Source: Fibrobacteria bacterium AD312 (GTDB taxonomy: Bacteria; Fibrobacterota; Fibrobacteria; Fibrobacterales; Fibrobacteraceae). From it: a stretch of 64,000 nucleotides of DNA. Position 1 is the stretch's first letter. Every line of letters starts with the position of its first letter. The stretch spans positions 975-64,974 of the forward strand of contig LIUM01000047.1 of assembly GCA_001462345.1 (NCBI GenBank), read 5' to 3'. A program made the translations under genes and the position numbers. Under the pieces are notes generated by a model. That model saw nothing but the letters and a program-made list of their open reading frames with translations. It was not told the DNA's origin and ran no database searches. Of the stretch, positions 1 to 10,615 are shown in pieces.

Positions 1-570
1 TCCTATACAACGAAAGAGGACGGTTATTCGTTAAGTGTTTCCGGAATAACTTATTATAGATACAACGGATCTATACGGACGATACAAAGTGCCTCTAATG
101 AGGTAATAGACTCTATTATAAATTTTGTTATATATTCAAAAACAGAAGCAATTATTACGGATTCTATAGGAACATCTAGTGAAACTAGCTCAGAAACATT
201 TTGGGACGTTACTGATTTGGGGACTGCTAATGAAGAACATCGGTATCGCCTACAAGAACGGAGTGATGATTCTGTTGGCTATGTTATTTACTCTCTGGAT
301 TCATCGGGTTTTAATAGTTCAGTTGAAACCATATCTTTGGAGGGAACGTCAAATAAAACGGTTTATGAAAAAATACCTGGTGTCCCAGAGTCAATAAGAA
401 ATAATTCATTATGTAGTGCAAATAAAACATATTATAATGGGGCAAATCCAATTGTGTCAACTGTTTCCGTTCTTGAAAATACAGATTCAAGTTTTGCCGT
501 GCATGTGACAACAGATTATTTAAATGTAAATATAGGAGAATCAGAGTGTTATTATAATAGGATGCCATAG
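1..570 (+). CDS. hypothetical S/T/N-rich protein, 5'-truncated by the window edge
   Basis: Frame 1 is open from nt 1 to the TAG at 568-570. There is no recognisable motif. The gene is co-oriented with the downstream cassette genes. Confidence 0.45.
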   Translation, partial: SYTTKEDGYSLSVSGITYYRYNGSIRTIQSASNEVIDSIINFVIYSKTEAIITDSIGTSSETSSETFWDVTDLGTANEEHRYRLQERSDDSVGYVIYSLDSSGFNSSVETISLEGTSNKTVYEKIPGVPESIRNNSLCSANKTYYNGANPIVSTVSVLENTDSSFAVHVTTDYLNVNIGESECYYNRMP

Positions 571-651
571 AATAATCGTCTATAATAAAAGAATTCTAGA
601 TAATTGTTGGTTTGTCATTAGGGATCTGAAAAATTTTAGCTCAGAGTTATT

Positions 652-1526
652 ATGGAAACAAAACAAATATCCAAATTTGAAGATGTTATGCTTTTGATTC
701 AGACGTTTGGTACGAAAATCGGTTTTGTATATCGTGGACAGGCTGATGAAATATGGGAATTGAAAGCAAATTTGTTCCGAAAAAAAATTGATGGCGTAAT
801 AGATCCTCTTGCTCATCTAGAAAAATTCAAAAAGTATCTTATCGGGAGAAAAGATGTCAATGACTTATCTGAGAATGAAATTTGGGCAGTTGGGCAACAT
901 TATGGATTGTATACTCCATTACTTGATTGGAGTGTCTCTATAGCTGTGGCCTTATTTTTTTCATTTGAAAATGATCAAATAATATCTGATAATAGGTCTT
1001 TGTTTATTCTGAATGCAGACAAAATGAACAAGAAATTTTGTGATGAATTGGTTTCTCAAATAAAAATAAAATATCCAGAATTTCCTGATTCAAGGTGGGA
1101 TAAGATAGTTAAACCAGAATGGAAGGGAAAATTTTTACTTGATCTTCACGAAAAAAATAATTTAGGATCATCAATGTTTTTTGTTGAGGAGATAGTTCGT
1201 GATTTAGAAAAAAATGGCCACGAATGTTTTCTCCAAAAACATTTGGTTCTGATAGGATTCTTGCACAAAGGGGTCTGTTTTCAATTGTATATAATAATGA
1301 AAAATTTTCAAAGATAATTGATAATATTGGTGAAAATGAATGGCTAATTAAAGTAAATATTGATTCATCATTACGAAAATCAATTTTGAAATATTTAGAC
1401 TCAGTGAATGTCAATTATTTGTCTTTATTCCCAGATATTATGGGCGCAGCACGGTACACGAACTACAAATTGAAGAGTTATCAAGATATACAGGAATCTC
1501 TTAGTGAGAAGAATTTTTGGCTTTAA
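652..1526 (+). pseudogene. FRG-domain protein, reading frame broken (frame 1 to frame 0) near an A7 run
   Basis: The N-terminal ORF (652-1317) carries FRG hallmarks (YRGQ; QHYGLYTPLLDWS). The C-terminal ORF (to 1526) carries the FRG C-terminal motif DRILAQRGLF. Both frames are open across 1203-1317, and an A7 homopolymer lies at 1208-1214. Confidence 0.6.
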
Positions 1527-1599
1527 TAAATGAGGATTTTGTGATTTTTTATGTAAAATACTTTTAGCCTGTTTTATTTACAAAGAAGTGAAAATAGCA

Positions 1600-1810
1600 C
1601 CTAACAGCCGTTGGTGCGCGACCTTCGCTTCATCTCATACATGAGCCAGCTCCTGGCGGCAATTCGAACTAACATTTGCTTTGCAAATGAAGTTCTCATT
1701 GCATATTTTCCGTTTCTCGATTATATTCTCATAAGTTGAAACGGAAAATATAGCGCCAGGGCCGTCTCATCGGAGCGCGGACATGCTCGGCGGCACAACT
1801 AAACGTTATA
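1600..1810. repeat. long attC-like structured element (E1), 211 nt
   Basis: It begins cCTAACAgcc and ends aAACGTTATa. It contains several hairpins (gaactaacatttgc/gcaaatgaagttc; ccgtttc/gaaacgg). Its ends and its gcgacc(t)tcg core resemble the E7 element at 7590-7888. Confidence 0.4.
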
Positions 1811-1848
1811 AGGACTGCATAAAGCAGCAAATCAGAGAGGTGAAGAAA

Positions 1849-2238
1849 ATGAAGAAAAGAATTGTACTAGTATTTATTGTTTTGTTTTTAAGTTCATTTG
1901 GAATTTATGCTCAGAATCAAACAACAGAACCTGTTCAAGAACCTATGGTTCCTTATCGTCTTTATAAAACAACAAATAATTGGATATTCATACAATTAGA
2001 AACTGCAACTGGAAAGATGTGGCAGATACAATATTCTGTTCAAGATGATAAGAGAGGAGGACTTGTTTTGAATGATAAAAATCTTGCCGAAGACAAAGAA
2101 GTTGTTGTTGGCAGATTTACACTTTATCCTACACGTAATATGTGGACTTTTATTTTATTAGATCAAATATCAGGTTCGTCTTGGCAAGTTCAATGGTCTT
2201 TTGACAAAAAAAATAGATTTGTTACTCCAATTTATTAA
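1849..2238 (+). CDS. secreted hypothetical protein with an internal duplication
   Basis: An SD (agagagg) precedes the ATG at 1849, and a signal peptide follows (MKKRIVLVFIVLFLSSFGIYA). There are two related repeats, NWIFIQLETATGKMWQIQYS and NMWTFILLDQISGSSWQVQWS. Confidence 0.5.
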   Translation: MKKRIVLVFIVLFLSSFGIYAQNQTTEPVQEPMVPYRLYKTTNNWIFIQLETATGKMWQIQYSVQDDKRGGLVLNDKNLAEDKEVVVGRFTLYPTRNMWTFILLDQISGSSWQVQWSFDKKNRFVTPIY

Positions 2239-2977
2239 ATCTATGTTTGTTATAATTTTTATTGCATTACTTATTTTATTTATATTTTTAAGTGTAAACT
2301 CTGCAAAAATAAAAGGATTATTTGGTGAAAGAAATGTAGCGGCACGACTTAGTTTCTTAAATCCCAATGAATATAAAATTTTTAATGATTTACTTCTAAG
2401 AACAAACAATAACAATACAGTTCAAATAGATCATCTTGTTATTTCTATTTATGGAATTTTTGTTATAGAAACTAAAAATTATAAAGGTTGGATCTTTGGT
2501 AATGAAAATGCGGAAAATTGGATGCAAATCATTTATAAAGAAAGACATCAATTTAGAAATCCAATAAAACAAAATTGGTCTCATATATATGCATTAAAAG
2601 AAATTTTGAAAGATTATAAAAATATAAGATATTTCCCGATTGTGGTTTTTGTTGGAAGTGGGGAATTAAAGGAAATTCAGACAAAAAGGCCTGTTCTATA
2701 CAGTAATAAACTTTCTGATTATATAAAAAGTCAGTCAATTGTACAGAATTTGTTGCAAGAAGATATACCAAAAATTATTTCGATATTAGAAACAAAAAAT
2801 ATTGGAAATAAGGAAAATAAAAAAGAGCATATACAAAATATACATAAGACGACTGTTGAGCGAAAAAAATTAATTTGCCCGAGATGTAATTCGGAATTAA
2901 AATTAAGGGAAGGAAAACATGGAAAATTTTATGGCTGTTCAAATTATCCATATTGTAAATTTACAATGAAATATTGA
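2201..2977 (+). CDS. NERD-domain (nuclease-related) protein with a C-terminal topoisomerase-type C4 zinc ribbon
   Basis: An N-terminal TM segment is followed by a NERD core (DHLVISIYGIFVIETKNYKGWIFG) and a C-terminal CPRC...CSNYPYC ribbon. The start may instead be the ATG at 2243. Confidence 0.6.
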   Translation: MTKKIDLLLQFIKSMFVIIFIALLILFIFLSVNSAKIKGLFGERNVAARLSFLNPNEYKIFNDLLLRTNNNNTVQIDHLVISIYGIFVIETKNYKGWIFGNENAENWMQIIYKERHQFRNPIKQNWSHIYALKEILKDYKNIRYFPIVVFVGSGELKEIQTKRPVLYSNKLSDYIKSQSIVQNLLQEDIPKIISILETKNIGNKENKKEHIQNIHKTTVERKKLICPRCNSELKLREGKHGKFYGCSNYPYCKFTMKY

Positions 2978-2986
2978 AGAAAATCG

Positions 2987-3117
2987 TATAACACAGTTTT
3001 CAACCTGACATTTGTTTTGTCATAAAACTTGCTAAAGCCTTCGGCTTCTTCACGCAAGTTTTACGCCAATTTTTGCCTACGGCAAAAAACACAAAAGCAG
3101 GTTAAAACACTGTTAGC
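2987..3117. repeat. attC-like element E3 (family A)
   Basis: It runs from TATAACA ... caacctgaca ... through the palindrome ttttgcctacggcaaaa ... to caggttaaa ... TGTTAGC. Its arms are inverted repeats shared with E4 and E10. Confidence 0.55.
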
Positions 3118-3202
3118 TCGGCGCTGCGCGCGAGGCGGAAAAGTAAGACGAAATGATAGTATCTATGAAAAAACACTTCATCGAAAAGGATTAGAAGGAA
3201 CT

Positions 3203-3640
3203 ATGCTTATCAGATTTGCTGAGATAACTGATCTACAACAGATATTAGGACTCTATAATTCACTAAACCCAGATGATAAACCTATTGATTTATCGCTAGC
3301 GCAACAAATTTGGACTAATAGTATTAATTGCAATAATATTAAATATGTTGTTGCAATTGAAAATGGTATAATAATCGCAACCTGTAATATCGCGATTATA
3401 TTGAATTTAACACGATCAGGTAGACCATATGGAATAATAGAAAATGTAATAACGGATGAAAAATATAGAAGAAAAGGAATTGGAAAGGAAATAATAGAAA
3501 CTGCTCTAAAATATGCTAAAGAAATGAACTGTTATAAAGTAGTTCTTCTGAGTAGCAGTAAGCGAAAAGACGCACATGAGTTTTATAGATCAATAGGATT
3601 TGATACTAACTCCAAAAAAGGATTTGAAATAAGGTTTTAG
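3203..3640 (+). CDS. GNAT family N-acetyltransferase
   Basis: The acetyl-CoA binding motif R-R-K-G-I-G-K is present (DEKYRRKGIGKEII). I trimmed the start to the first ATG downstream of E3. Confidence 0.7.
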   Translation: MLIRFAEITDLQQILGLYNSLNPDDKPIDLSLAQQIWTNSINCNNIKYVVAIENGIIIATCNIAIILNLTRSGRPYGIIENVITDEKYRRKGIGKEIIETALKYAKEMNCYKVVLLSSSKRKDAHEFYRSIGFDTNSKKGFEIRF

Positions 3641-3666
3641 ATCTTATACATATGATGAGGATATAA

Positions 3667-4005
3667 ATGAGCGTTTTTACTAACTTGCAAGAGATATTTT
3701 CACATCAGATTATACTTATTCTAGCAGAACAATTAAGCACAAATAGTAACGGAATCAGTATTCAAAACTATGAAGCTAATGGTATTTTATTTATTCCCGT
3801 CTTTACTTCAGCAGAGAAATTAAAAGAATCATTAAAAGGGCATAAATTAGAAAATGAAGTAATTAAAATGGAAGGTTCTTATTTTTGTTCTATATTATTA
3901 GGAAATGAGATAATTATTGTCAATCCAGATTTATCTGATGAAATACGAACAAGTGCAAATGAATTATCAGAATTAATGAAGGATCAAAAAAATAAAAATA
4001 GCTAA
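3667..4005 (+). CDS. small hypothetical protein, possibly SseB-like
   Basis: It sits 26 nt after the GNAT gene. A weak LFIPVFTS-type motif is present. Its TAA stop (4003-4005) lies inside the gcTAAca start of E4. Confidence 0.35.
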   Translation: MSVFTNLQEIFSHQIILILAEQLSTNSNGISIQNYEANGILFIPVFTSAEKLKESLKGHKLENEVIKMEGSYFCSILLGNEIIIVNPDLSDEIRTSANELSELMKDQKNKNS

Positions 4006-4117
4006 CAACTGCTTCAACCTGTCAATTCCTTTTGTCATGAAAATTGCAGTCGCTACGCTCGGCAATTTTCACGCCAATCCCTTCGGGCCGGAATTGCAGG
4101 TTAAGCGAAATGTTAGC
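4001..4117. repeat. attC-like element E4 (family A), 117 nt
   Basis: It begins gcTAACAa and ends aTGTTAGC. The arm aacctgTcaattcc pairs with ggaattgcaggtt, leaving one unpaired T as an extrahelical base. The ORF stop lies inside the first core. Confidence 0.6.
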
Positions 4118-4135
4118 AATACAAAAGAATTTCAT

Positions 4136-4372
4136 ATGACTAGTATAGATAAAATTGATAATAAAATTTTAGAATATTGTTGCCAAAAATGGTTCAAAAA
4201 CCACGCCGGAATTGCCGCATTGGAGTTGGGGCGCGTTTTTGATTTATCCAATAAAAAAGTTATGTCTCTGTTAGAAAGATTAGTCGCAGAAGGTTTTGGG
4301 ACTATAAATAAAAATGTGTCACTGTATTCATTATCTATTTCAGAAAAAAAATATAAGATGAAAAAAATGTAA
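4136..4372 (+). CDS. small putative winged-helix DNA-binding protein
   Basis: The first ATG lies after E4. The 78-aa product ends ...LLERLVAEGFGTI, which resembles a MarR/wHTH recognition helix. Confidence 0.35.
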   Translation: MTSIDKIDNKILEYCCQKWFKNHAGIAALELGRVFDLSNKKVMSLLERLVAEGFGTINKNVSLYSLSISEKKYKMKKM

Positions 4373-4493
4373 CCCATATTTTTTTCCAGCAAACGATACA
4401 TTAAAGAAAAGTTATTATTCATCTGAACTTTCTCAGCAGAATATCCCTGAATTTACAAAGCGGCTTCATTTAGGGGCAAATCAAATTGCATTA

Positions 4494-5297
4494 GTGTGTT
4501 TCAGCGAAGAGGTTTTGAAAAAATATTTTGATCATCCAGAAAAATATTGTATTGAGGATACAGAATCTGGGGGTGAGATAACAACGCCTTATGAAACTGC
4601 ATATTTTTTTGTTCAATACGGGAAAAGAACTATAAATAATGATATTTCTATTGTGGTTTTATACAAAGATCTTACAATGTTAGAAAATTCTGAACAACAG
4701 CATTGGAGTTCTTATGAAATTAATAATTGTAAGATTGATCAAGGAGATGATAATTTTAGGCGTTTTGTACAACGTAACTATTATGGAGAATTCGTTGAAT
4801 ATTCAGATCCAATAAAAAATTTAACTATCGCGATTGATTTAATGAATAAAGTGTGCCGTAAAAATCTATTATTCAAAAAAAATAAGAACATGCATTTATG
4901 TCCACCAGTAGAAAATACACAAAAAGCATATTGCGATTCTTGTTCTGAGCTTTATAAGATTATTGGACCAGATAATATTGATCAGAACGCATTAAAAAGG
5001 ATTTTATTTGAAAAATGGAATATGCAAGAAACGGAATTACAAAATAAAGAATCCCACAGACCGTATAGTTGTAATCAACTTTTTAAGCTTTTAGAAGACC
5101 GTTTAATGGGAAATAATAAATTGACTGAAGTAATAGACCAGATCAAAAAATCTCGCATTGATGCGGACCATAAAATTTTGGAGCCTGATTTTAAAAACCA
5201 AAATTATACAAAACAATTTTATGTTATTTGTAAAAATTTTGTTGTATTGTTGAATCAATTTTCTGGCGCTTTTAGGAGTTTTAAAAAAGATTGCTAA
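4494..5297 (+). CDS. hypothetical protein (GTG start)
   Basis: The 267-aa ORF has no in-frame ATG between the upstream TGA at 4359 and the GTG at 4494. Its TAA stop at 5295-5297 lies inside the gcTAAca start of E5. Confidence 0.45.
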   Translation: MCFSEEVLKKYFDHPEKYCIEDTESGGEITTPYETAYFFVQYGKRTINNDISIVVLYKDLTMLENSEQQHWSSYEINNCKIDQGDDNFRRFVQRNYYGEFVEYSDPIKNLTIAIDLMNKVCRKNLLFKKNKNMHLCPPVENTQKAYCDSCSELYKIIGPDNIDQNALKRILFEKWNMQETELQNKESHRPYSCNQLFKLLEDRLMGNNKLTEVIDQIKKSRIDADHKILEPDFKNQNYTKQFYVICKNFVVLLNQFSGAFRSFKKDC

Positions 5298-5375
5298 CAC
5301 TCGGTGTAGCTGACACTCGCATGAAACTCAGCACAACTGGTTCTAGCAGCGAGTGCAGCTAACCTTTACGTTAGC
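5293..5375. repeat. attC-like element E5 (family B), 83 nt
   Basis: It runs from gcTAACActcggtgtagctgacactcgc ... gcgagtg ... to cGTTAGC. The internal inverted repeat is cactcgc/gcgagtg. The first ~60 nt are about 85% identical to the element at 8898-8970. Confidence 0.55.
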
Positions 5376-5390
5376 TGGATAAAGGAAAAC

Positions 5391-5597
5391 ATGCACATAA
5401 TACTTGAGAAAGCAAGAAGATACATGAAAAACATTCAGCATCATGATTTAAAGCGACTATACTCCTACAGTCAATCGGTTGGATATTGGGTGCAGACAAA
5501 AAATGGGATACCTCTTATGGAGGACCCTTTTGCTAGATTTAGGCCAACGAGTAAAAAGGCTGATGTTGAAACGGGTGAAGATAAGAAAGGCGAATAA
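5391..5597 (+). CDS. graspetide-type RiPP precursor peptide A
   Basis: An SD (aaaggaaaac) is followed by 68 aa. A PFARF motif (DPFARFRPTSKKADVETGEDKKGE) precedes a C-terminal core rich in T/S/K/D/E. It is one of two tandem paralogs directly upstream of an ATP-grasp ligase. Confidence 0.55.
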   Translation: MHIILEKARRYMKNIQHHDLKRLYSYSQSVGYWVQTKNGIPLMEDPFARFRPTSKKADVETGEDKKGE

Positions 5598-5615
5598 CAT
5601 TCTAAAGAGGTAGAA

Positions 5616-5819
5616 ATGCATATAATACTTGAAAAAGCAAGAAAGTATAACAAGAGAGAACATTCAAGAGAAATGTTAAATCAGTTCTCTTATAATCAAA
5701 AACTTGGATTTTGGTCTCATAAGTTAAATAATGTTCCGTTAATGGATGAAAGCGTTGGTTTCAAACCAAGAACAAAAAAAGAAGATATTGAAACAGGAGA
5801 GGATAGGAAAGGTGAATAA
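5616..5819 (+). CDS. graspetide-type RiPP precursor peptide B (tandem paralog)
   Basis: An SD (aagagg) is followed by 67 aa. The N-terminus MHIILEKAR is the same as in precursor A, and the core is FKPRTKKEDIETGEDRKGE. Confidence 0.55.
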   Translation: MHIILEKARKYNKREHSREMLNQFSYNQKLGFWSHKLNNVPLMDESVGFKPRTKKEDIETGEDRKGE

Positions 5820-6750
5820 TGTCAATGTATTAATATTATCAGACTCAGAAGATTTCACATCTGATTTGGTATGCATTGAACTCCATCGACAAGGCGTTTC
5901 TTACTTAAGAATAGACAGAGATCTAATAAATAGCTACGACATTTCCTGGCAATTAAGTGGTAATTTAATAATTACAAATATTGAAACAAATGAAACATTT
6001 TCAATAAGTAAGGAAGAGCTTTCAGGAGTTTACTTCAGAGCCCCAACGTATTTTCGCGAGACATTCACAACAAGTGTGACCCCAGAAATCCAATTAAAAA
6101 GGTCACAAGCGTTATCCATGTTCAGAAATATTGAATACTTTGGTCAAGCAAAATGGATGAATGCGCCTTCAAGAACATTCTTTGCAGAAAACAAAGTAAT
6201 ACAGCTTTTGTATGCAAAGGAAATGGGGTTTAATATTCCAGAAACAGAAATTACTAATGGTAATGAGCCCAAATCATCCCATCAAGAGTATATAGCAAAA
6301 TCAATTGACACCGCACTATTTGATTTCGGAGAAAGCGAGGCGTTTTCTTATGCTGAAATTGTAAGTAAAGGCGATTTAAAAAAGTATGATAATCGTGCGG
6401 CGCCGTATTTTATTCAAGAATATCTTTCGGATAAAATTGATTTAAGAGTAACAGTTATTGGTGATATGGCTTATGCATGCGAGATTCTAGAAGATTCGCA
6501 AGGCATAACTGGTGACTGGAGATTAAGAAAGAATAATGTAAAATTTATCTCAATTGAACTCCCTGATGATATTAGGAGGATGTGTATAGACATTACCGCA
6601 AAGTTTGGACTAATGTTTTCTGGAATTGATTTAATTCGTAGAAAAGGGCGCTATTATTTTGTGGAATTAAATCCGACAGGAGAATGGGCGTGGTTGGTTG
6701 ATTCTTGTGGATTCAAAATTCAACAAAGGATTTGCGAGTGTCTGTTATAA
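5812..6750 (+). CDS. ATP-grasp ligase (RimK/MdnC-like peptide macrocyclase candidate)
   Basis: A GTG start with an upstream caggagagg SD overlaps the end of precursor B. An ATP-grasp fold is evident (…YFIQEYLSDKIDLRVTVIGD…FVELNPTGEWAW). The product is ~312 aa. Confidence 0.7.
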   Translation: MNNVNVLILSDSEDFTSDLVCIELHRQGVSYLRIDRDLINSYDISWQLSGNLIITNIETNETFSISKEELSGVYFRAPTYFRETFTTSVTPEIQLKRSQALSMFRNIEYFGQAKWMNAPSRTFFAENKVIQLLYAKEMGFNIPETEITNGNEPKSSHQEYIAKSIDTALFDFGESEAFSYAEIVSKGDLKKYDNRAAPYFIQEYLSDKIDLRVTVIGDMAYACEILEDSQGITGDWRLRKNNVKFISIELPDDIRRMCIDITAKFGLMFSGIDLIRRKGRYYFVELNPTGEWAWLVDSCGFKIQQRICECLL

Positions 6751-7604
6751 ATAAAATATCTGCAGCAGTATTCGCTGTTTGGCGGTTTATCCAAACCGAG
6801 ATATTGTTTCCAATTCCACTACTTGGGGCTAATAGGCGTATACATAAAAAGCTACACGACTTTGAAAATGAAAAAACGAAAGATCTAGACTATATGAATG
6901 GATATGAAGCTTTATCAATTGAAAGATTGAAAGAGTATTATAAAGATTCATTTGAAACGAAAAAGGTTATTGAAGATAAGCTCAAGACATCTCTTGCATC
7001 ATTAACACTGGCATCAGCATTCATCCTGGCTTTTACTAATTACTTTGTGTCAGGATTTGGAAAGGATTCAATTTCAATATTTGATAGGTTAATAATATCA
7101 ATGATGATATTTTCAATATTGAACTTTATTTTAGCGGCTGTTATGGCGATGGAAACGATTGGAGAGAGAAATAAAATATATTCAATTTTCCCAAAAGATG
7201 AAGCGATCCACTTATCTAAAGATTCGGAATTGAAAGAAATGTATGCCATTCTAACCGAGTGCAATTCTCTTTCAAATACCATACGTCAGAATTTTATGAA
7301 TGTAAGTTTCAAGTCTATTAGAAACGGAATAATTGCAACAATTATGCTGCCGATTCTTTTTGCTCTTGGAAATTCCGATCATAAACAGACTGATCCAAAT
7401 TTGACTTTGGTAACTGCAATAGCAAAAGTGAACACAAGTCTTTATCAAGAATTAGAAAAAATGAACCAATCAATTGATACTTTGTCTAAAATAATAGAGA
7501 ATGCAAATTATAATCGGACAAATGCAATCTGTAATAAGCTAGATAGTATCGCATTAAAGATAAGTTGTATCTCAAAAACAAATACACCAGCTAACAAACG
7601 TTGA
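6705..7604 (+). CDS. multi-TM membrane protein of unknown function (RiPP cluster partner?)
   Basis: It has three or more hydrophobic helices. It overlaps the ligase by 46 nt if it starts at 6705, and the alternative start is the ATG at 6894. It ends ...gctaacaaacgTTGA inside the start of E7. Confidence 0.45.
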   Translation: MWIQNSTKDLRVSVINKISAAVFAVWRFIQTEILFPIPLLGANRRIHKKLHDFENEKTKDLDYMNGYEALSIERLKEYYKDSFETKKVIEDKLKTSLASLTLASAFILAFTNYFVSGFGKDSISIFDRLIISMMIFSILNFILAAVMAMETIGERNKIYSIFPKDEAIHLSKDSELKEMYAILTECNSLSNTIRQNFMNVSFKSIRNGIIATIMLPILFALGNSDHKQTDPNLTLVTAIAKVNTSLYQELEKMNQSIDTLSKIIENANYNRTNAICNKLDSIALKISCISKTNTPANKR

Positions 7605-7888
7605 ACCTGATGGCGCTGTCATCTCGTAGGTCGCTCGCTCCAGGCGTCAATTCGCTTTCGGATTCGTGCTGCGCACGAATGCCACTCCTAACGGCTGAGG
7701 GGTTTTGCCTACGGCAAAAGTCGCTTCGCGACCCTTCGGGCCCTCATCCGTAAGTCGTTCGAAGCTCATTACACAGCCTTCCGATTCATTCCCAGTCTTT
7801 ACTATCTTCTCGTAATGAATCGAAAGACTGTATCGCCTGGGCTCCCTCCTTGTAGCCCTAATGCGGGGCGGGTTACCTCAACGTTATA
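7590..7888. repeat. long attC-like structured element E7 (~300 nt), possibly two tandem sites
   Basis: It begins gcTAACAaacgttgaacctg and ends cctcAACGTTATAcgc. It contains the palindrome ttttgcctacggcaaaa that is shared with E3. It also contains the hairpins ggattcgtgc/gcacgaatc and cagtcttt/aaagactg. Confidence 0.4.
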
Positions 7889-7943
7889 CGCACTAATCGT
7901 AATTGTCTTGCCAATAGTATCAAATGATACTATCATTGATTGT

Positions 7944-8903
7944 ATGAAACCACCTTATGAAATTACGCCAAAGATTTTAAAACTATATGGCCGTATTAAT
8001 GAAGCCATCGGTCAATGTAAAAGTTTGAATCTGGTAAGGCCAGAAGCCAGACTTAGGAAACAGAATAGGATCAAGACAATCCATTCGTCGTTGGCGATTG
8101 AAGGAAATACGCTCAGTGTGGATCAGGTCTCTGCAATAATTGAAAATAATCGCGTGGCAGGGCCGAAAAAGGATATTATTGAAGTTCAAAATGCAATAAA
8201 AGCATATGATGTTTTGAATTCACTGAAGACTTTGAAAATGAGCGATTATTTAAAGTCTCATAAAGTTTTGATGGACGGACTGATTGCAAGCCCTGGAAAA
8301 TTTAGGACAAAACAGGTTGCCATAGTGAAGGGAAAAAACCTACAACATGTGGCACCAAAATATGATATTGTTCCTGGATTAATGAAGGATCTTTTTGATT
8401 ATTTGAAAACAGATCATGATTTGCCGATAATTAAAAGTTGTGTTTTTCATTATGAATCTGAATTTATTCATCCGTTTGAAGATGGCAACGGAAGGATGGG
8501 GCGGTTGTGGCAAACAAGGATATTGATGGATGAAAATCCAATATTTGAATATGTTCCGATTGAAGAGACAATAAAGAATAATCAGGAAAAATATTACAAG
8601 TCATTATCTGATTCAGATAATATTGGCATGTCGACGCCATTTATTGAATTTATGCTTGAAGCAATTGATAATTCGTTACGAGCAACAATTAGCGAGACAT
8701 CGGTTCCAAATTATGATTATGAAGCCCGATTTGAAATATTGTCAAAGAATATTAATGACTGGTTTGATCGTAAGGAATATATGAAAGTGTGTAAAGGAAT
8801 ATCAACAGCGACAGCGAGCCGGGATTTGAAACAGATGGTAAGCGATGGCCGATTAATAGTTTCGGGCACGGGCCGCATGACGAAATACAAAAGAGGCGTA
8901 TAA
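7944..8903 (+). CDS. Fic/Doc family protein (AMPylator-type Fido domain)
   Basis: The Fic motif HPFEDGNGRMGR is present. I trimmed the start to the ATG at 7944 downstream of E7. The TAA stop at 8901-8903 lies inside the gtaTAACc start of E8. Confidence 0.8.
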   Translation: MKPPYEITPKILKLYGRINEAIGQCKSLNLVRPEARLRKQNRIKTIHSSLAIEGNTLSVDQVSAIIENNRVAGPKKDIIEVQNAIKAYDVLNSLKTLKMSDYLKSHKVLMDGLIASPGKFRTKQVAIVKGKNLQHVAPKYDIVPGLMKDLFDYLKTDHDLPIIKSCVFHYESEFIHPFEDGNGRMGRLWQTRILMDENPIFEYVPIEETIKNNQEKYYKSLSDSDNIGMSTPFIEFMLEAIDNSLRATISETSVPNYDYEARFEILSKNINDWFDRKEYMKVCKGISTATASRDLKQMVSDGRLIVSGTGRMTKYKRGV

Positions 8904-8970
8904 CCATCGATGTAGCTGATGCTCGGATGAAACTCAGCATAACTGGTTCTAGAAGCGAGCGCCGAGGAAA
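8898..8970. repeat. attC-like element E8 (family B), 3' end degenerate
   Basis: Its sequence gtaTAACcatcgatgtagctgatgctcggatgaaactcagcataactggttctagaagcgag is about 85% identical to E5. No terminal GTTAGC is present, and the element abuts the rsmH stop. Confidence 0.45.
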
Positions 8971-8976
8971 ATAAAT

Positions 8977-10023
8977 TTATGCTCGTATCGCCCATCGCAA
9001 ACGAACTGATCTTGAGCGTGGATTGCTGAAACGTTCCTCTTTACTTCCTCTTATTTCTTTATCCTGAATGTATGAATATAGTCCTAATCGTTTTCCTTCT
9101 TCAAAGGAATGTACTACGCGATTATCTTCACCTGAATGAAAAGTAAGTATTGCAACGCGACCACCGGATTTTAAGCAATATGGTAAATTGGCTAGCAATG
9201 CTTCCAGCGCTGAAAGCTCTCCATTAATTTCAATACGCAGTGCTTGATATACTCGTCGTTCTGATTTTACGATATCATTATCGCTACGTTTCAATTCAGA
9301 CAAGGTGCTTTTTATTATTCTTGTAAGATCCATGGTTGTTTTCATTTCTGTGCGATTTTGAAAAATGGCGTGGGCAATTATGCATGCGTCTGGTTCATCA
9401 GCATTGTCCCGTAGAAGAGATGCAATTTTATTTTCTGTAATCCGATTCAATAAATGTGATGCGGTCTCTCCTTTTTCCTGGTTCATTCGCATATCCAGTG
9501 GTCCATCTTTTTTAAACGAAAATCCTCGTTCTGGATTGTCAATTTGCATAGATGAAACACCGAGATCAGCTAAAATCATATCAACATATGGAGGGTCGAT
9601 TGCTGAAAGTACCTTGGGAAGAGACGCAAAATTTGCATGGATTGCAACAAAAGATTCCGGTCCAAAACCTTCGCTACGAATTCGTGCCTCTGTTTTCGAT
9701 AACTCTACAGAATCAACATCCAGTCCATAGAGAATCCCGCCTGGTTGTATTTTTTTAAGTATCTCGCGCGTGTGTCCGCCGTAGCCAAGCGTTGCGTCTA
9801 CGGCTATTTCTCCGGGCTTTGGATCGAGAATAGCAAGTACTTCCTGCAAACAAATTGAACGATGAGTCCCTGCTGGTGTATCTCCGCGAGAAATAACATG
9901 TTGTACCTCTGCTTCATATTTTTCTGGGTTCAATTCTTTATACTTCTCAGAAAAGGTGCGAGGGTGTGTTCCCGAATAGCGCGGTCTTCGTTTATGTGGC
10001 TGATTTGAATTTGAATCTTGCAT
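8977..10023 (-). CDS. rsmH: 16S rRNA (cytosine1402-N4)-methyltransferase RsmH
   Basis: Conserved RsmH motifs are present (DATLGYGGHT, DLGVSSMQIDNPERGFSF, GPLDMRM, HSGEDN, NPRSRSVRLR). The ORF track extends the N-terminus to 10179, and I chose the internal Met at 10021-10023. Confidence 0.8.
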   Translation of the reverse strand: MQDSNSNQPHKRRPRYSGTHPRTFSEKYKELNPEKYEAEVQHVISRGDTPAGTHRSICLQEVLAILDPKPGEIAVDATLGYGGHTREILKKIQPGGILYGLDVDSVELSKTEARIRSEGFGPESFVAIHANFASLPKVLSAIDPPYVDMILADLGVSSMQIDNPERGFSFKKDGPLDMRMNQEKGETASHLLNRITENKIASLLRDNADEPDACIIAHAIFQNRTEMKTTMDLTRIIKSTLSELKRSDNDIVKSERRVYQALRIEINGELSALEALLANLPYCLKSGGRVAILTFHSGEDNRVVHSFEEGKRLGLYSYIQDKEIRGSKEERFSNPRSRSVRLRWAIRA

Positions 10024-10114
10024 TGTGTTTCTCTCAATATATAATAGAAAGAAAAAATATACTGAAGTAGTAGAGCTTGATATAAAGTTTATATATATCG
10101 TAGTTAAAAAGAAT

Positions 10115-10210
10115 TCTAACAACTGATAATTCCTTTTGTCACACTTTTTGCAGTCGCTCCGCTGCAAAAAACGCGCCAATATACGCGTTTCAGGTTAAGC
10201 AAATGTTAGC
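10115..10210. repeat. attC-like element E10 (family A), left arm partly deleted
   Basis: It runs from tcTAACAactgataattcc ... through ttgcagtcgctccgctgcaa ... to caggttaagcaaaTGTTAGC. Its right half is nearly identical to E4. Confidence 0.5.
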
Positions 10211-10337
10211 TGTGTGCCATGCAAAGGTGCACCAATCTACTCGGTGGAAGTCCGAGATCGGGAGATGCCAGAATCTGACATGTACCATTTTAACGGACAC
10301 AACCATCAGGTATATTTATATCTGAAAGAGGTATCCT

Positions 10338-10415
10338 ATGTCAGAAGAGAAACGAAAAAGGCAATATAGCCCTGAATACAATGCAAATGCGGTCAAATTG
10401 GCTTTAGGAAATTAG
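10338..10415 (+). mobile_element. IS3-family transposase orfA N-terminal fragment (remnant)
   Basis: A 25-aa ORF encodes MSEEKRKRQYSPEYNANAVKLALGN*, matching the conserved OrfA start (…KRxxYSxEFKxxAVKL). No transposase body follows it. Confidence 0.45.
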
Positions 10416-10518: not shown

Positions 10519-10605
10519 GGAGAGATGCCAGAGTGGTCGATTGGGACGGTCTCGAAAACCGTAGTCTCCTCACGGGGACCGAGGGTTCAAATCCCTCTCT
10601 CTCCT
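10519..10605 (+). tRNA. tRNA-Ser (anticodon CGA)
   Basis: A cloverleaf was folded by eye: acceptor GGAGAGA/TCTCTCC, anticodon stem ACGGT/ACCGT with loop CTCGAAA, a long variable arm, and T-arm GAGGG/CCCTC with TTCAAAT. CCA is not encoded. Confidence 0.8.
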
Positions 10606-10615
10606 CTGCAACAAG

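Follow-up and report, generated by a model that had tools for sequence, protein, structure and literature searches.

A probable chromosomal integron-type cassette array in a member of the Fibrobacteraceae, with long branched attC sites and an integrase probably supplied in trans

In this study we examined a 64,000-nt stretch of DNA from Fibrobacteria bacterium AD312 (GenBank assembly GCA_001462345.1, contig LIUM01000047.1, positions 975 to 64,974 of the forward strand), hereafter called the window, the first 10.2 kb of which hold co-oriented groups of open reading frames (ORFs) parted by seven palindromic elements on the + strand (E1, E3, E4, E5, E7, E8 and E10). Judged from the sequence, this region is very probably the distal three quarters of an integron-type array in the chromosome that measures about 13.3 kb, has some ten cassettes and probably receives its integrase in trans. 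Such an array is a known kind of gene-capture system; less usual are the rarely reported host, the long branched attC sites and the reuse of an attI-like site away from the integrase gene intI. A first-pass annotation made from the letters alone had already read the elements as integron attC sites in a cassette array, and this is borne out by the core anatomy of the elements, by homology breakpoints at G↓TT (the arrow marks the breakpoint) and by an integrase of the same lineage. Each cassette consists of one to four co-oriented ORFs together with its own attC, which has the structural marks of a folded single-stranded hairpin with the bottom strand favoured. By analogy with the integron literature, the integrase would cut between the G and the TT of the 3' core, and the cassette would be excised as a circle or inserted at an attI-type site.

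The seven elements lie where the first-pass annotation had placed them, with coordinates refined by a few nucleotides (the end of E8, for instance, to 8962; Table 1). All seven start with xxTAAC, as it had stated, and six of the seven end with GTTAGC or GTTATA; its count of five elements with a 3' core was wrong, since it had listed six and six were found. E8, which had been described as lacking a clear 3' core, indeed has none, because its right arm is deleted; where E8 joins the 3' end of rsmH, the sister contig L125 (L numbers denote the related contigs introduced below) carries a complete attC at the same place. Published attC sites are defined by an R and an L box, a central spacer left unpaired, extrahelical bases at a distance of 6 bp and a terminal structure that varies (PMC5027507), and we judged the elements by cores of the form RYYYAAC and GTTRRRY with conserved AAC and GTT, and by two to three extrahelical bases on the L'' arm (PMC5027507). 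When folded as DNA, E3, E4 and E5 formed a TAAC/GTTA R box, an unpaired spacer of 4-6 nt and then an L-box stem series with a variable top, the L box having stems of 3 and then 6 bp, each followed by a one-base bulge, and a further stem beyond them. The unpaired T noted earlier in E4 is real, and a second unpaired base lies 6 bp away from it; in E3, E4, E5 and E7 both bulges are on the R''-side arm, 6 bp apart. Read on the bottom strand, E3 has G and T as its bulged bases, E4 has G and A, and E5 and E7 both have C and T. The combination of R box, unpaired spacer and L box is full in E3, E4, E5 and E7 and partial in E1, and E8 and E10 are damaged copies. The attCs of class 1 integrons (aadA5, aac(6')-IIc) share with these elements the AAC/GTT ends, the 5/5-6 nt spacer and the order of 3 bp, bulge, 6 bp, bulge and stem, and the extra bases of E3 (top-strand C and A, bottom-strand G and T) are the same as theirs. 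Unlike class 1 attCs, the sites described here are longer, have branched tops and not simple triloops, and show no sequence similarity to them.

A sequence-free structural template that held only the attC geometry and AAC...GTT was run over both strands of the 64 kb and matched exactly E3, E4 and E5; shuffled windows averaged 0.63 matches. As a positive control, the template recovered the aadA5 and aac(6')-IIc attCs of plasmid class 1 integrons and had no other match in 39 kb; since other class 1 attCs in the control were missed, it is specific but not sensitive. In its strict form it misses E1 and E7, of which E7 proves to have a canonical core once aligned with its relatives and E1 does not. 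The bottom-strand folding that the first-pass annotation had proposed as a check is conserved: in all five intact elements (E1, E3, E4, E5 and E7) the bottom strand folds more stably than the top (in E3, -33.2 versus -27.9 kcal/mol), and the hairpin loops read as GAA triloops on the bottom strand. Published attC sites likewise have a lower folding energy and more G:T pairs on the bottom strand (PMC5027507). In the E5 family, represented by 242 unique copies with the consensus (G/A)(C/G)CTAAC ... GTTAG(G/C)(C/T), GTT is present in every copy and AAC in at least 241, one L-box pair covaries (GC in 129 copies, AT in 106), and among the mismatch cells those giving G:T on the bottom strand only outnumbered those giving it on the top strand only by 50 to 9.

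The related loci were collected with a 19-nt core of the E5 family, which gave at least 120 metagenome contigs, and through proteins of the window, which gave the others. BLAST with the element families found at least 393 elements in 132 loci, with 272 copies of E5, 77 of E1, 19 of E4, 13 of E7, 10 of E3 and 2 of the attC at L001 2551-2635 among the matches listed; the candidate locus L060, on a 1.09-Mb contig, was discarded as a 24-nt chance match. None of the 132 loci carries elements on mixed strands, the gaps between elements have a median of 932 nt, and in 246 of 261 segments the longest ORF runs in the direction of the elements. The dispersal outside arrays that the first-pass annotation had named as speaking against an integron was not seen, and in the window this search found no copy at 10.3-64 kb.

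These elements are G+C-rich palindromes just past stop codons, some of their hairpins read cTTCGg on the mRNA strand, and the catalogued candidate RNAs include consecutive-intergenic multi-stem motifs (the DUF1874 motif, PMC5737381). It is nevertheless extremely improbable that they are a generic family of repetitive extragenic palindromic (REP) sequences or miniature inverted-repeat transposable elements (MITEs), or structured RNAs of 3' untranslated regions or terminators unrelated to integrons. No copies occur outside arrays, the 53 kb of adjacent core genome included, and orientation is uniform within every locus; the better-folding strand, with its G:T pairs and GAA loops, is the antisense (bottom) one; and, as described below, homology breaks exactly at G↓TT and the elements are physically linked to an integron integrase. 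Moreover, terminator-like sites in 1-10.6 kb were at chance level. Promoter-like sites there were also at chance level, in a scan that does not cover the promoter type of this phylum, and therefore no promoter role can be claimed for E1. A search of Rfam, at the gathering threshold and at E ≤ 10, matched no family to any element, which ruled out the DUF1874 motif and the Rfam class 1 attC motifs as their identity. The DUF1874 motif itself (Weinberg et al. 2017, PMC5737381) is a consecutive-intergenic multi-stem element that has been put forward as an attC of unusual complexity, and no integrase was seen near it; unlike in that case, the link to an integrase and the G↓TT breakpoints are demonstrated here, E1 and E7 being without an Rfam match at E ≤ 10.

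The Fic cassette (7885-8897) recurs at 94-98% identity in L011, L122, L035, L023 and L140, which together with the window makes six contexts; it sits behind E5-type, E1-type or hybrid attCs, and its homology starts every time at acG↓TTATACGCACT (G↓TTATAC). The cassette encoding the 129-aa protein and the NERD nuclease starts at G↓TTATA and is preceded by E1 in the window, by an E5-type site in L126 and by an E4-type site in L132. Cassettes 5 and 6 are adjacent and 99.6% identical in the window and in L126, and their neighbours differ on both sides. Among the 25 cassette bodies present in at least two contexts, the family of the upstream attC varied in 12 and that of the downstream attC in 2 (Fisher P = 0.004), and for cassettes with at least two contexts the median attC identity was 0.95 downstream versus 0.56 upstream (P = 7e-7). 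The downstream attC is conserved and the upstream one variable because a cassette carries its own 3' attC, as the integron model predicts, and this asymmetry is predicted by no REP, MITE or terminator model. That one cassette can stand after unlike attCs, with homology breaking at G↓TT, shows that cassettes have moved as the integron model describes. In addition, we noted in two cassettes of L023 (5114-5319 and 6332-6542) an E1-type 3' attC in place of the E5-type one of the homologues, the switch falling exactly at the first core, and at L140 8676-8725 a 60-nt hybrid attC, its left arm of E4 type and its right arm of E5 type.

Parts of the array are damaged: E8 is truncated, E10 has an arm deletion, a half attC lies in L001, which extends the array upstream, the FRG gene is apparently frameshifted, and the window copy of E7 has four broken pairs beside the L box. 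Together with the lack of an integrase in the window, this would be expected of a fossil, that is, a cluster of attC sites lacking an integron integrase (CALIN) left behind by a lost or inactive integron, no longer recombined and with its repeats kept by descent. We consider such a fossil unlikely, because the 99.6%-identical pair has different neighbours on both sides in the window and in L126, the Fic cassette occurs in six contexts at 94-98% identity, eight different first cassettes were counted over the two types of start junction described below, and intact 449-aa integrase ORFs are present in sample series that also gave array contigs; as a whole, these findings point to recent reshuffling of cassettes in the population.

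As the first-pass annotation had stated, the window contains no integrase gene: a tblastn search with IntI1 (the query matching database copies at 100% identity) had no hit at E ≤ 1, and with the Fibrobacteraceae IntI the best E value was 0.076. Even with L001 added, no integrase adjoins the array, which does not make up a complete integron there. In the lineage, where the existence of intI had been left to be checked, an integrase was found in L025, L107 and L134. The homologue detected with IntI1 in L025 and L107 is a 449-aa protein that matches the whole TIGR02249 'integron integrase' profile with 278.8 bits (cutoff 265) and aligns with residues 6-317 of VchIntIA (PDB 2A3V), the IntI-specific insertion being ungapped; on these matches we regard the Fibrobacteraceae protein as a bona fide integron integrase. 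Its gene and the neighbouring cassettes, which end in E5-type attCs, are divergently oriented. L025, L107 and L110 have a common sequence up to ...AAATGACTAG↓TTAG and then continue with three different first cassettes, and the L110 array, with the same attI, contains E1-type sites. In L134 a 65%-identical integrase (P0046) is followed by attI, one cassette and an E7-type site. The contig of the P0046 integrase also carries GH5, GH8, GH18 and Por-tail genes. The Fibrobacteraceae-type integrases (L025 2604-3953; P0046-P0069) have an N-terminal extension of about 120 aa without a Pfam match and are 418-521 aa in total, compared with about 320 aa for IntI1 and VchIntIA.

The proximal end of the array was reached through L001, which extends the window by 3,121 nt upstream (2 mismatches in a 1,648-nt overlap, 99.9% identity) and adds three cassettes with an E5-type attC, the half attC (1801-1825) and an 85-nt canonical attC (2551-2635). 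The start of the array is an attI-like G↓TT junction that lies 3,093 nt before window position 1. Nucleotides 1-30 of L001 read GACTCTTATATAAGGGTTAAATGGGGTG↓TTGGGC, and the sequence up to G↓TT also precedes the first cassettes of L126, L122, L044 and L132, five different first cassettes being joined to this junction, all at G↓TT. A divergent DEAD-box helicase gene stands about 430 nt from the junction in L125-L127, where no integrase is found. In 138 loci and the window, the motif TAAATG-N4-G↓TTAG is confined to 12 junctions, both intI-linked and helicase-linked. Neither the helicase-linked junction nor the intI-linked attI folds better than shuffled sequences, which is what double-stranded attI-type sites should show. 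A half attC was considered for the helicase-linked junction and rejected, as neither of its strands folds better than shuffles. Having taken at least five first cassettes at one G↓TT and sharing the attI motif, the junction therefore behaves like a second attI.

The window and L001 together contain at least eight attC sites and no intI, and we infer the absence of intI farther upstream from L125-L127. The orientation of the array fits a position downstream of a divergent intI, and in related contigs with the same attC families intI adjoins the cassettes; a complete integron, with intI and attI directly upstream, beyond the window and L001, is nonetheless quite improbable. Nucleotides 1-30 of L001 match the helicase-linked junction GGGTTAAATGGGGTG↓TT and not the intI-linked attI AAATGACTAG↓TT, the DEAD-box helicase gene is within about 430 nt of the junction in L126, L125 and L127, and the 25 members of the 90% identity cluster of the integrase are all (25/25) on contigs of at most 27 kb, so that none is on the 180,774-bp source contig. 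Since the start junction borders the helicase gene and not intI in the sister contigs, the array is probably CALIN-like. Between the two possibilities offered by the first-pass annotation, an upstream intI with attI or a CALIN, the evidence favours the latter; an attI-like junction does lie upstream, but it is the helicase-linked one in the sister contigs. CALINs (Cury et al. 2016, PMC4889954) resemble the array in having at least two co-oriented attCs with cassettes, no intI nearby (for the array, over the window and L001) and scars of mobile elements at one end (here a probable remnant resembling the IS3 insertion sequence family and a group II intron stump). Unlike in a CALIN, the proximal junction here is defined, is reused by at least five first cassettes and shares the motif of the intI-linked attI. 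At attG sites (Loot et al., bioRxiv 10.1101/2022.09.11.507474) the integrase inserts cassettes into a double-stranded chromosomal site away from intI and attI; the helicase-linked junction is similar to these in not folding as a hairpin and differs from them in being a single reused site that bears a whole array and shares a motif with the cognate attI.

The array would thus hang on a second attI-like junction without an adjacent intI, and its integrase would probably be supplied in trans from a separate complete integron comprising intI, attI and the same attC families. Only tentatively do we go further and suggest that one integrase serves both its own attI and the orphan attI at the helicase side, to which the array of the window is attached, and that about a quarter of its attCs are 208-331 nt long, with conserved, covarying and multi-branched tops.

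The longest sites are those of the E1 and E7 families. The 77 copies of the E1 family are 208-213 nt long and 92-97% identical, and their right arm is invariant. In E1 the cores and the spacer are present and a bulge lies on the expected arm; the L box of E1 is non-canonical, with 4 bp, a bulge and 5 bp, and the element works as a cassette boundary in the analyses of junctions and of the sites that travel with cassettes. The relatives of E7 span 291-331 nt. When E7 was aligned with L055 and L122 (70-74% identity), it showed CTAAC/GTTAG ends and the L box AACC(T)G/CAGGTT; in this alignment the branched top of about 230 nt had changes on both sides in 28 of 95 pairs, and the consensus fold was 16 kcal/mol better on the bottom strand (-101.3 kcal/mol) than on the top (-85.6 kcal/mol).

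Several points weigh against the integron reading given above. Between the unpaired bases of E1 there are 5 bp and not 6. Published attCs are 57-141 bp long with a variable top of 20-100 nt (PMC5027507, PMC4889954), a range in which E5 (85 nt), E4 (119 nt) and E3 (133 nt) fall and which E1 (213 nt) and E7 (301 nt) exceed; this range is descriptive and no mechanistic requirement, and a study of 2026 set the IntegronFinder option --max-attc-size explicitly to 300. In 2 of the 25 cassette clusters the copies do not all have the same 3' attC, the change falling at R'', which the simple model does not predict. The complete integron (intI, attI and the shared attC families) comes from other contigs of the lineage only, and the flank upstream of the array in the source genome is known only by inference from L001 and the sister contigs. 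Finally, the absence of any Rfam match applies to integron motifs as well.

The host lineage is the Fibrobacteraceae, in the phylum Fibrobacterota of the Fibrobacteres-Chlorobi-Bacteroidetes (FCB) group. Well-studied integrons come almost all from Gammaproteobacteria. The leucyl-tRNA synthetase of the window shares a 90% cluster with proteins of metagenome-assembled genomes (MAGs) named 'Fibrobacteraceae bacterium', and the 90% cluster of the integrase includes a protein of Fibrobacteres bacterium CG2_30_45_31. The FCB-like host recognised by the first-pass annotation is thereby upheld; its description of this host as unusual for an array holds to a lesser degree, as NCBI already gives the label 'integron integrase' to proteins in Fibrobacteres and Fibrobacteria MAGs. 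Our literature search found no paper describing integrons of Fibrobacterota, and exact-pattern scans of a collection of species-representative genomes gave no match. In surveys, integrons were found mostly in Gammaproteobacteria, with few in Chlorobi, Ignavibacteriae, Bacteroidetes, Spirochaetes and others. The greater AT content of the array, noted earlier by eye, was confirmed: the G+C content is 31.5% in the cassette bodies, 48% in the elements and 37.0% in window 10.7-64 kb (standard deviation 2.7 in 1-kb windows). The GC skew is positive on the + strand over nearly all of window 1-64000, with a cumulative skew that reaches 6.5; this suggests that the + strand is the leading strand, and the attC bottom strands would then be on the leading-strand template, as they are in 25 of 30 sedentary chromosomal integrons (SCIs; PMC5371416).

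Like the Vibrio cholerae superintegron with its VCR (V. cholerae repeat) sites, the array is chromosomal and has many cassettes of about 1 kb, mostly of unknown or of defence or toxin type function, families of similar attCs with long branched tops, and toxin-antitoxin cassettes (here Phd/ParE, L125). It shares with SCIs in general that the cassettes are more AT-rich than the core genome and that the bottom strands are suggested to be on the leading-strand template. Unlike the superintegron, it has a Fibrobacterota host, does not adjoin intI in the window, combines coexisting attC families of 85, about 115-133, 208-213 and 291-331 nt, and is associated with a 449-aa integrase that is extended N-terminally by about 120 aa. 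If the long sites are real and search tools assume 57-141 bp, the cassette content of FCB-group bacteria would be under-counted, and if these sites are functional, the size limits of integron finders should be raised for such genomes. By default, IntegronFinder accepts attC sites of up to 200 nt. At least 130 related contigs, together with this locus, indicate that an uncultured fibre-degrading lineage of the FCB group keeps a large, actively shuffled cassette pool, the cargo of which includes defence-type genes (NERD, Fic, TIR, toxin-antitoxin), a cluster for a ribosomally synthesized and post-translationally modified peptide (RiPP) and a class D beta-lactamase-like gene. Sites of 85-331 nt apparently used by one integrase family, and an attI-like site away from intI, could serve as natural test cases for attC biology.

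Table 1. Elements, cassettes and flanking features at the array end of the window.
Feature	Position	Strand	Description
Cassette 4 body	1-1598	+	Begins upstream at about L001 2630; 3' end of a 335-aa ORF at 1-570
FRG-domain gene	652-1317	+	Pfam FRG, E 2e-20; overlaps a second ORF at 1224-1526
E1	1599-1811	+	213-nt attC-like site; R'' ACCTAAC, R' GTTATAA; multi-branched top
Cassette 5	1806-2985	+	Secreted 129-aa protein, 1849-2238; NERD nuclease with Zn-ribbon, 2243-2977
E3	2986-3118	+	Canonical attC, 133 nt; TAAC/GTTA ends; L box AACCTG/CAGGTT; two-hairpin top
Cassette 6	3114-3999	+	GNAT acetyltransferase, 3203-3640; 112-aa SseB-like protein (Pfam), 3667-4005
E4	4000-4118	+	Canonical attC, 119 nt; structural template match with 0 mismatches
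Cassette 7	4114-5291	+	Small winged helix-turn-helix-like ORF, 4136-4372; 267-aa ORF of unknown family, 4494-5297
E5	5292-5376	+	Canonical attC, 85 nt; commonest family
Cassette 8	5372-7588	+	Four-gene ATP-grasp RiPP module
Cassette 8 genes	5391-5597, 5616-5819; ~5812-6750; 6705/6897-7604	+	Precursor peptides; ATP-grasp maturase; membrane protein
E7	7589-7889	+	301-nt attC; canonical core, CTAAC/GTTAT ends, L box AACCTG/CAGGTT, two bulges 6 bp apart
Cassette 9	7885-8897	+	Fic-domain protein, 7944-8903; Pfam Fic, E 5e-18
E8	8898-8962	+	E5-type attC minus right arm and R'
rsmH	8977-10023	-	16S rRNA m4C1402 methyltransferase; Pfam MraW, E 5e-71; TIGR00006, 222 bits (cutoff 154)
E10	10114-10211	+	Degenerate E4-type attC; 10-nt left-arm deletion; R' GTTAGCT
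Group II intron, 5' 75 nt	10212-10285	+	Cut off; directly after E10
25-aa ORF MSEEKRKRQYSPEYNANAVKLALGN	10338-10415		Between array end and tRNA-Ser
tRNA-Ser	10519-10606		

As read in the first-pass annotation, the main ORFs through 8.9 kb are all on the + strand, the ORFs that stop at 4003, 5295 and 8901 take their stop codon from the TAA of the first core, and the FRG, NERD, GNAT, Fic and ATP-grasp domains are recognised by Pfam (in cassette 5, NERD with 2e-33 and Zn_ribbon_Top1 with 9e-13). The FRG gene, split over 652-1526, may be a frameshifted pseudogene; a 221-aa product of the FRG region was also called on four Logan contigs. The maturase of cassette 8 matches Pfam RimK/ATP-grasp_3 and, below cutoff but along the full length, TIGR04187, MvdC and MvdD. 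The two precursors are paralogous proteins of 67 and 68 aa with a PFARF-type leader motif and a core rich in T, K, D and E, and the module looks like a graspetide/microviridin-like ATP-grasp RiPP cluster. Among the matches listed there are more than 200 distinct cassette bodies. In the sister arrays, the first cassette at the helicase-linked junction in L126 (2487-3266; also in L125, L127 and L131) encodes a 259-aa class D beta-lactamase-like protein, which scored 221.6 bits with NF012161, under the cutoff of 250; others encode a TIR-domain protein (L132 1964-2836) and a Phd/ParE toxin-antitoxin pair (L125 7207-7820).

Decay marks the distal end of the array: E8 is truncated, E10 is degenerate, and a group II intron stump and a probable IS3-like remnant follow. 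The rsmH gene is kept there at 95-99% in L011, L057, L125, L128 and L139-L144, of which L141 stops short of the proximal flank. It is convergent with the array, away from any division and cell wall (dcw) genes, and bracketed by the attC remnants E8 and E10. The gene may belong to the chromosomal flank, or it may be what an old, reversed cassette ending in E10 contained, and this copy may be the only one. The 25-aa ORF appears to resemble the N-terminus of the OrfA of the IS3 family and is, we presume, an insertion sequence scar. A full copy of the intron is found in L143 (60-1954, minus strand), with a match to Rfam group-II-D1D4-4 of 64 bits, a 439-aa reverse transcriptase/maturase ORF and domain V/VI of 44 bits. 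The intron is here on the cassette (top) strand, in contrast to the published group IIC-attC introns, which are in the bottom strand (PMC3001079). In L125, an ORF-less remnant of a group II intron (6923-7135) lies ahead of the Phd/ParE genes.

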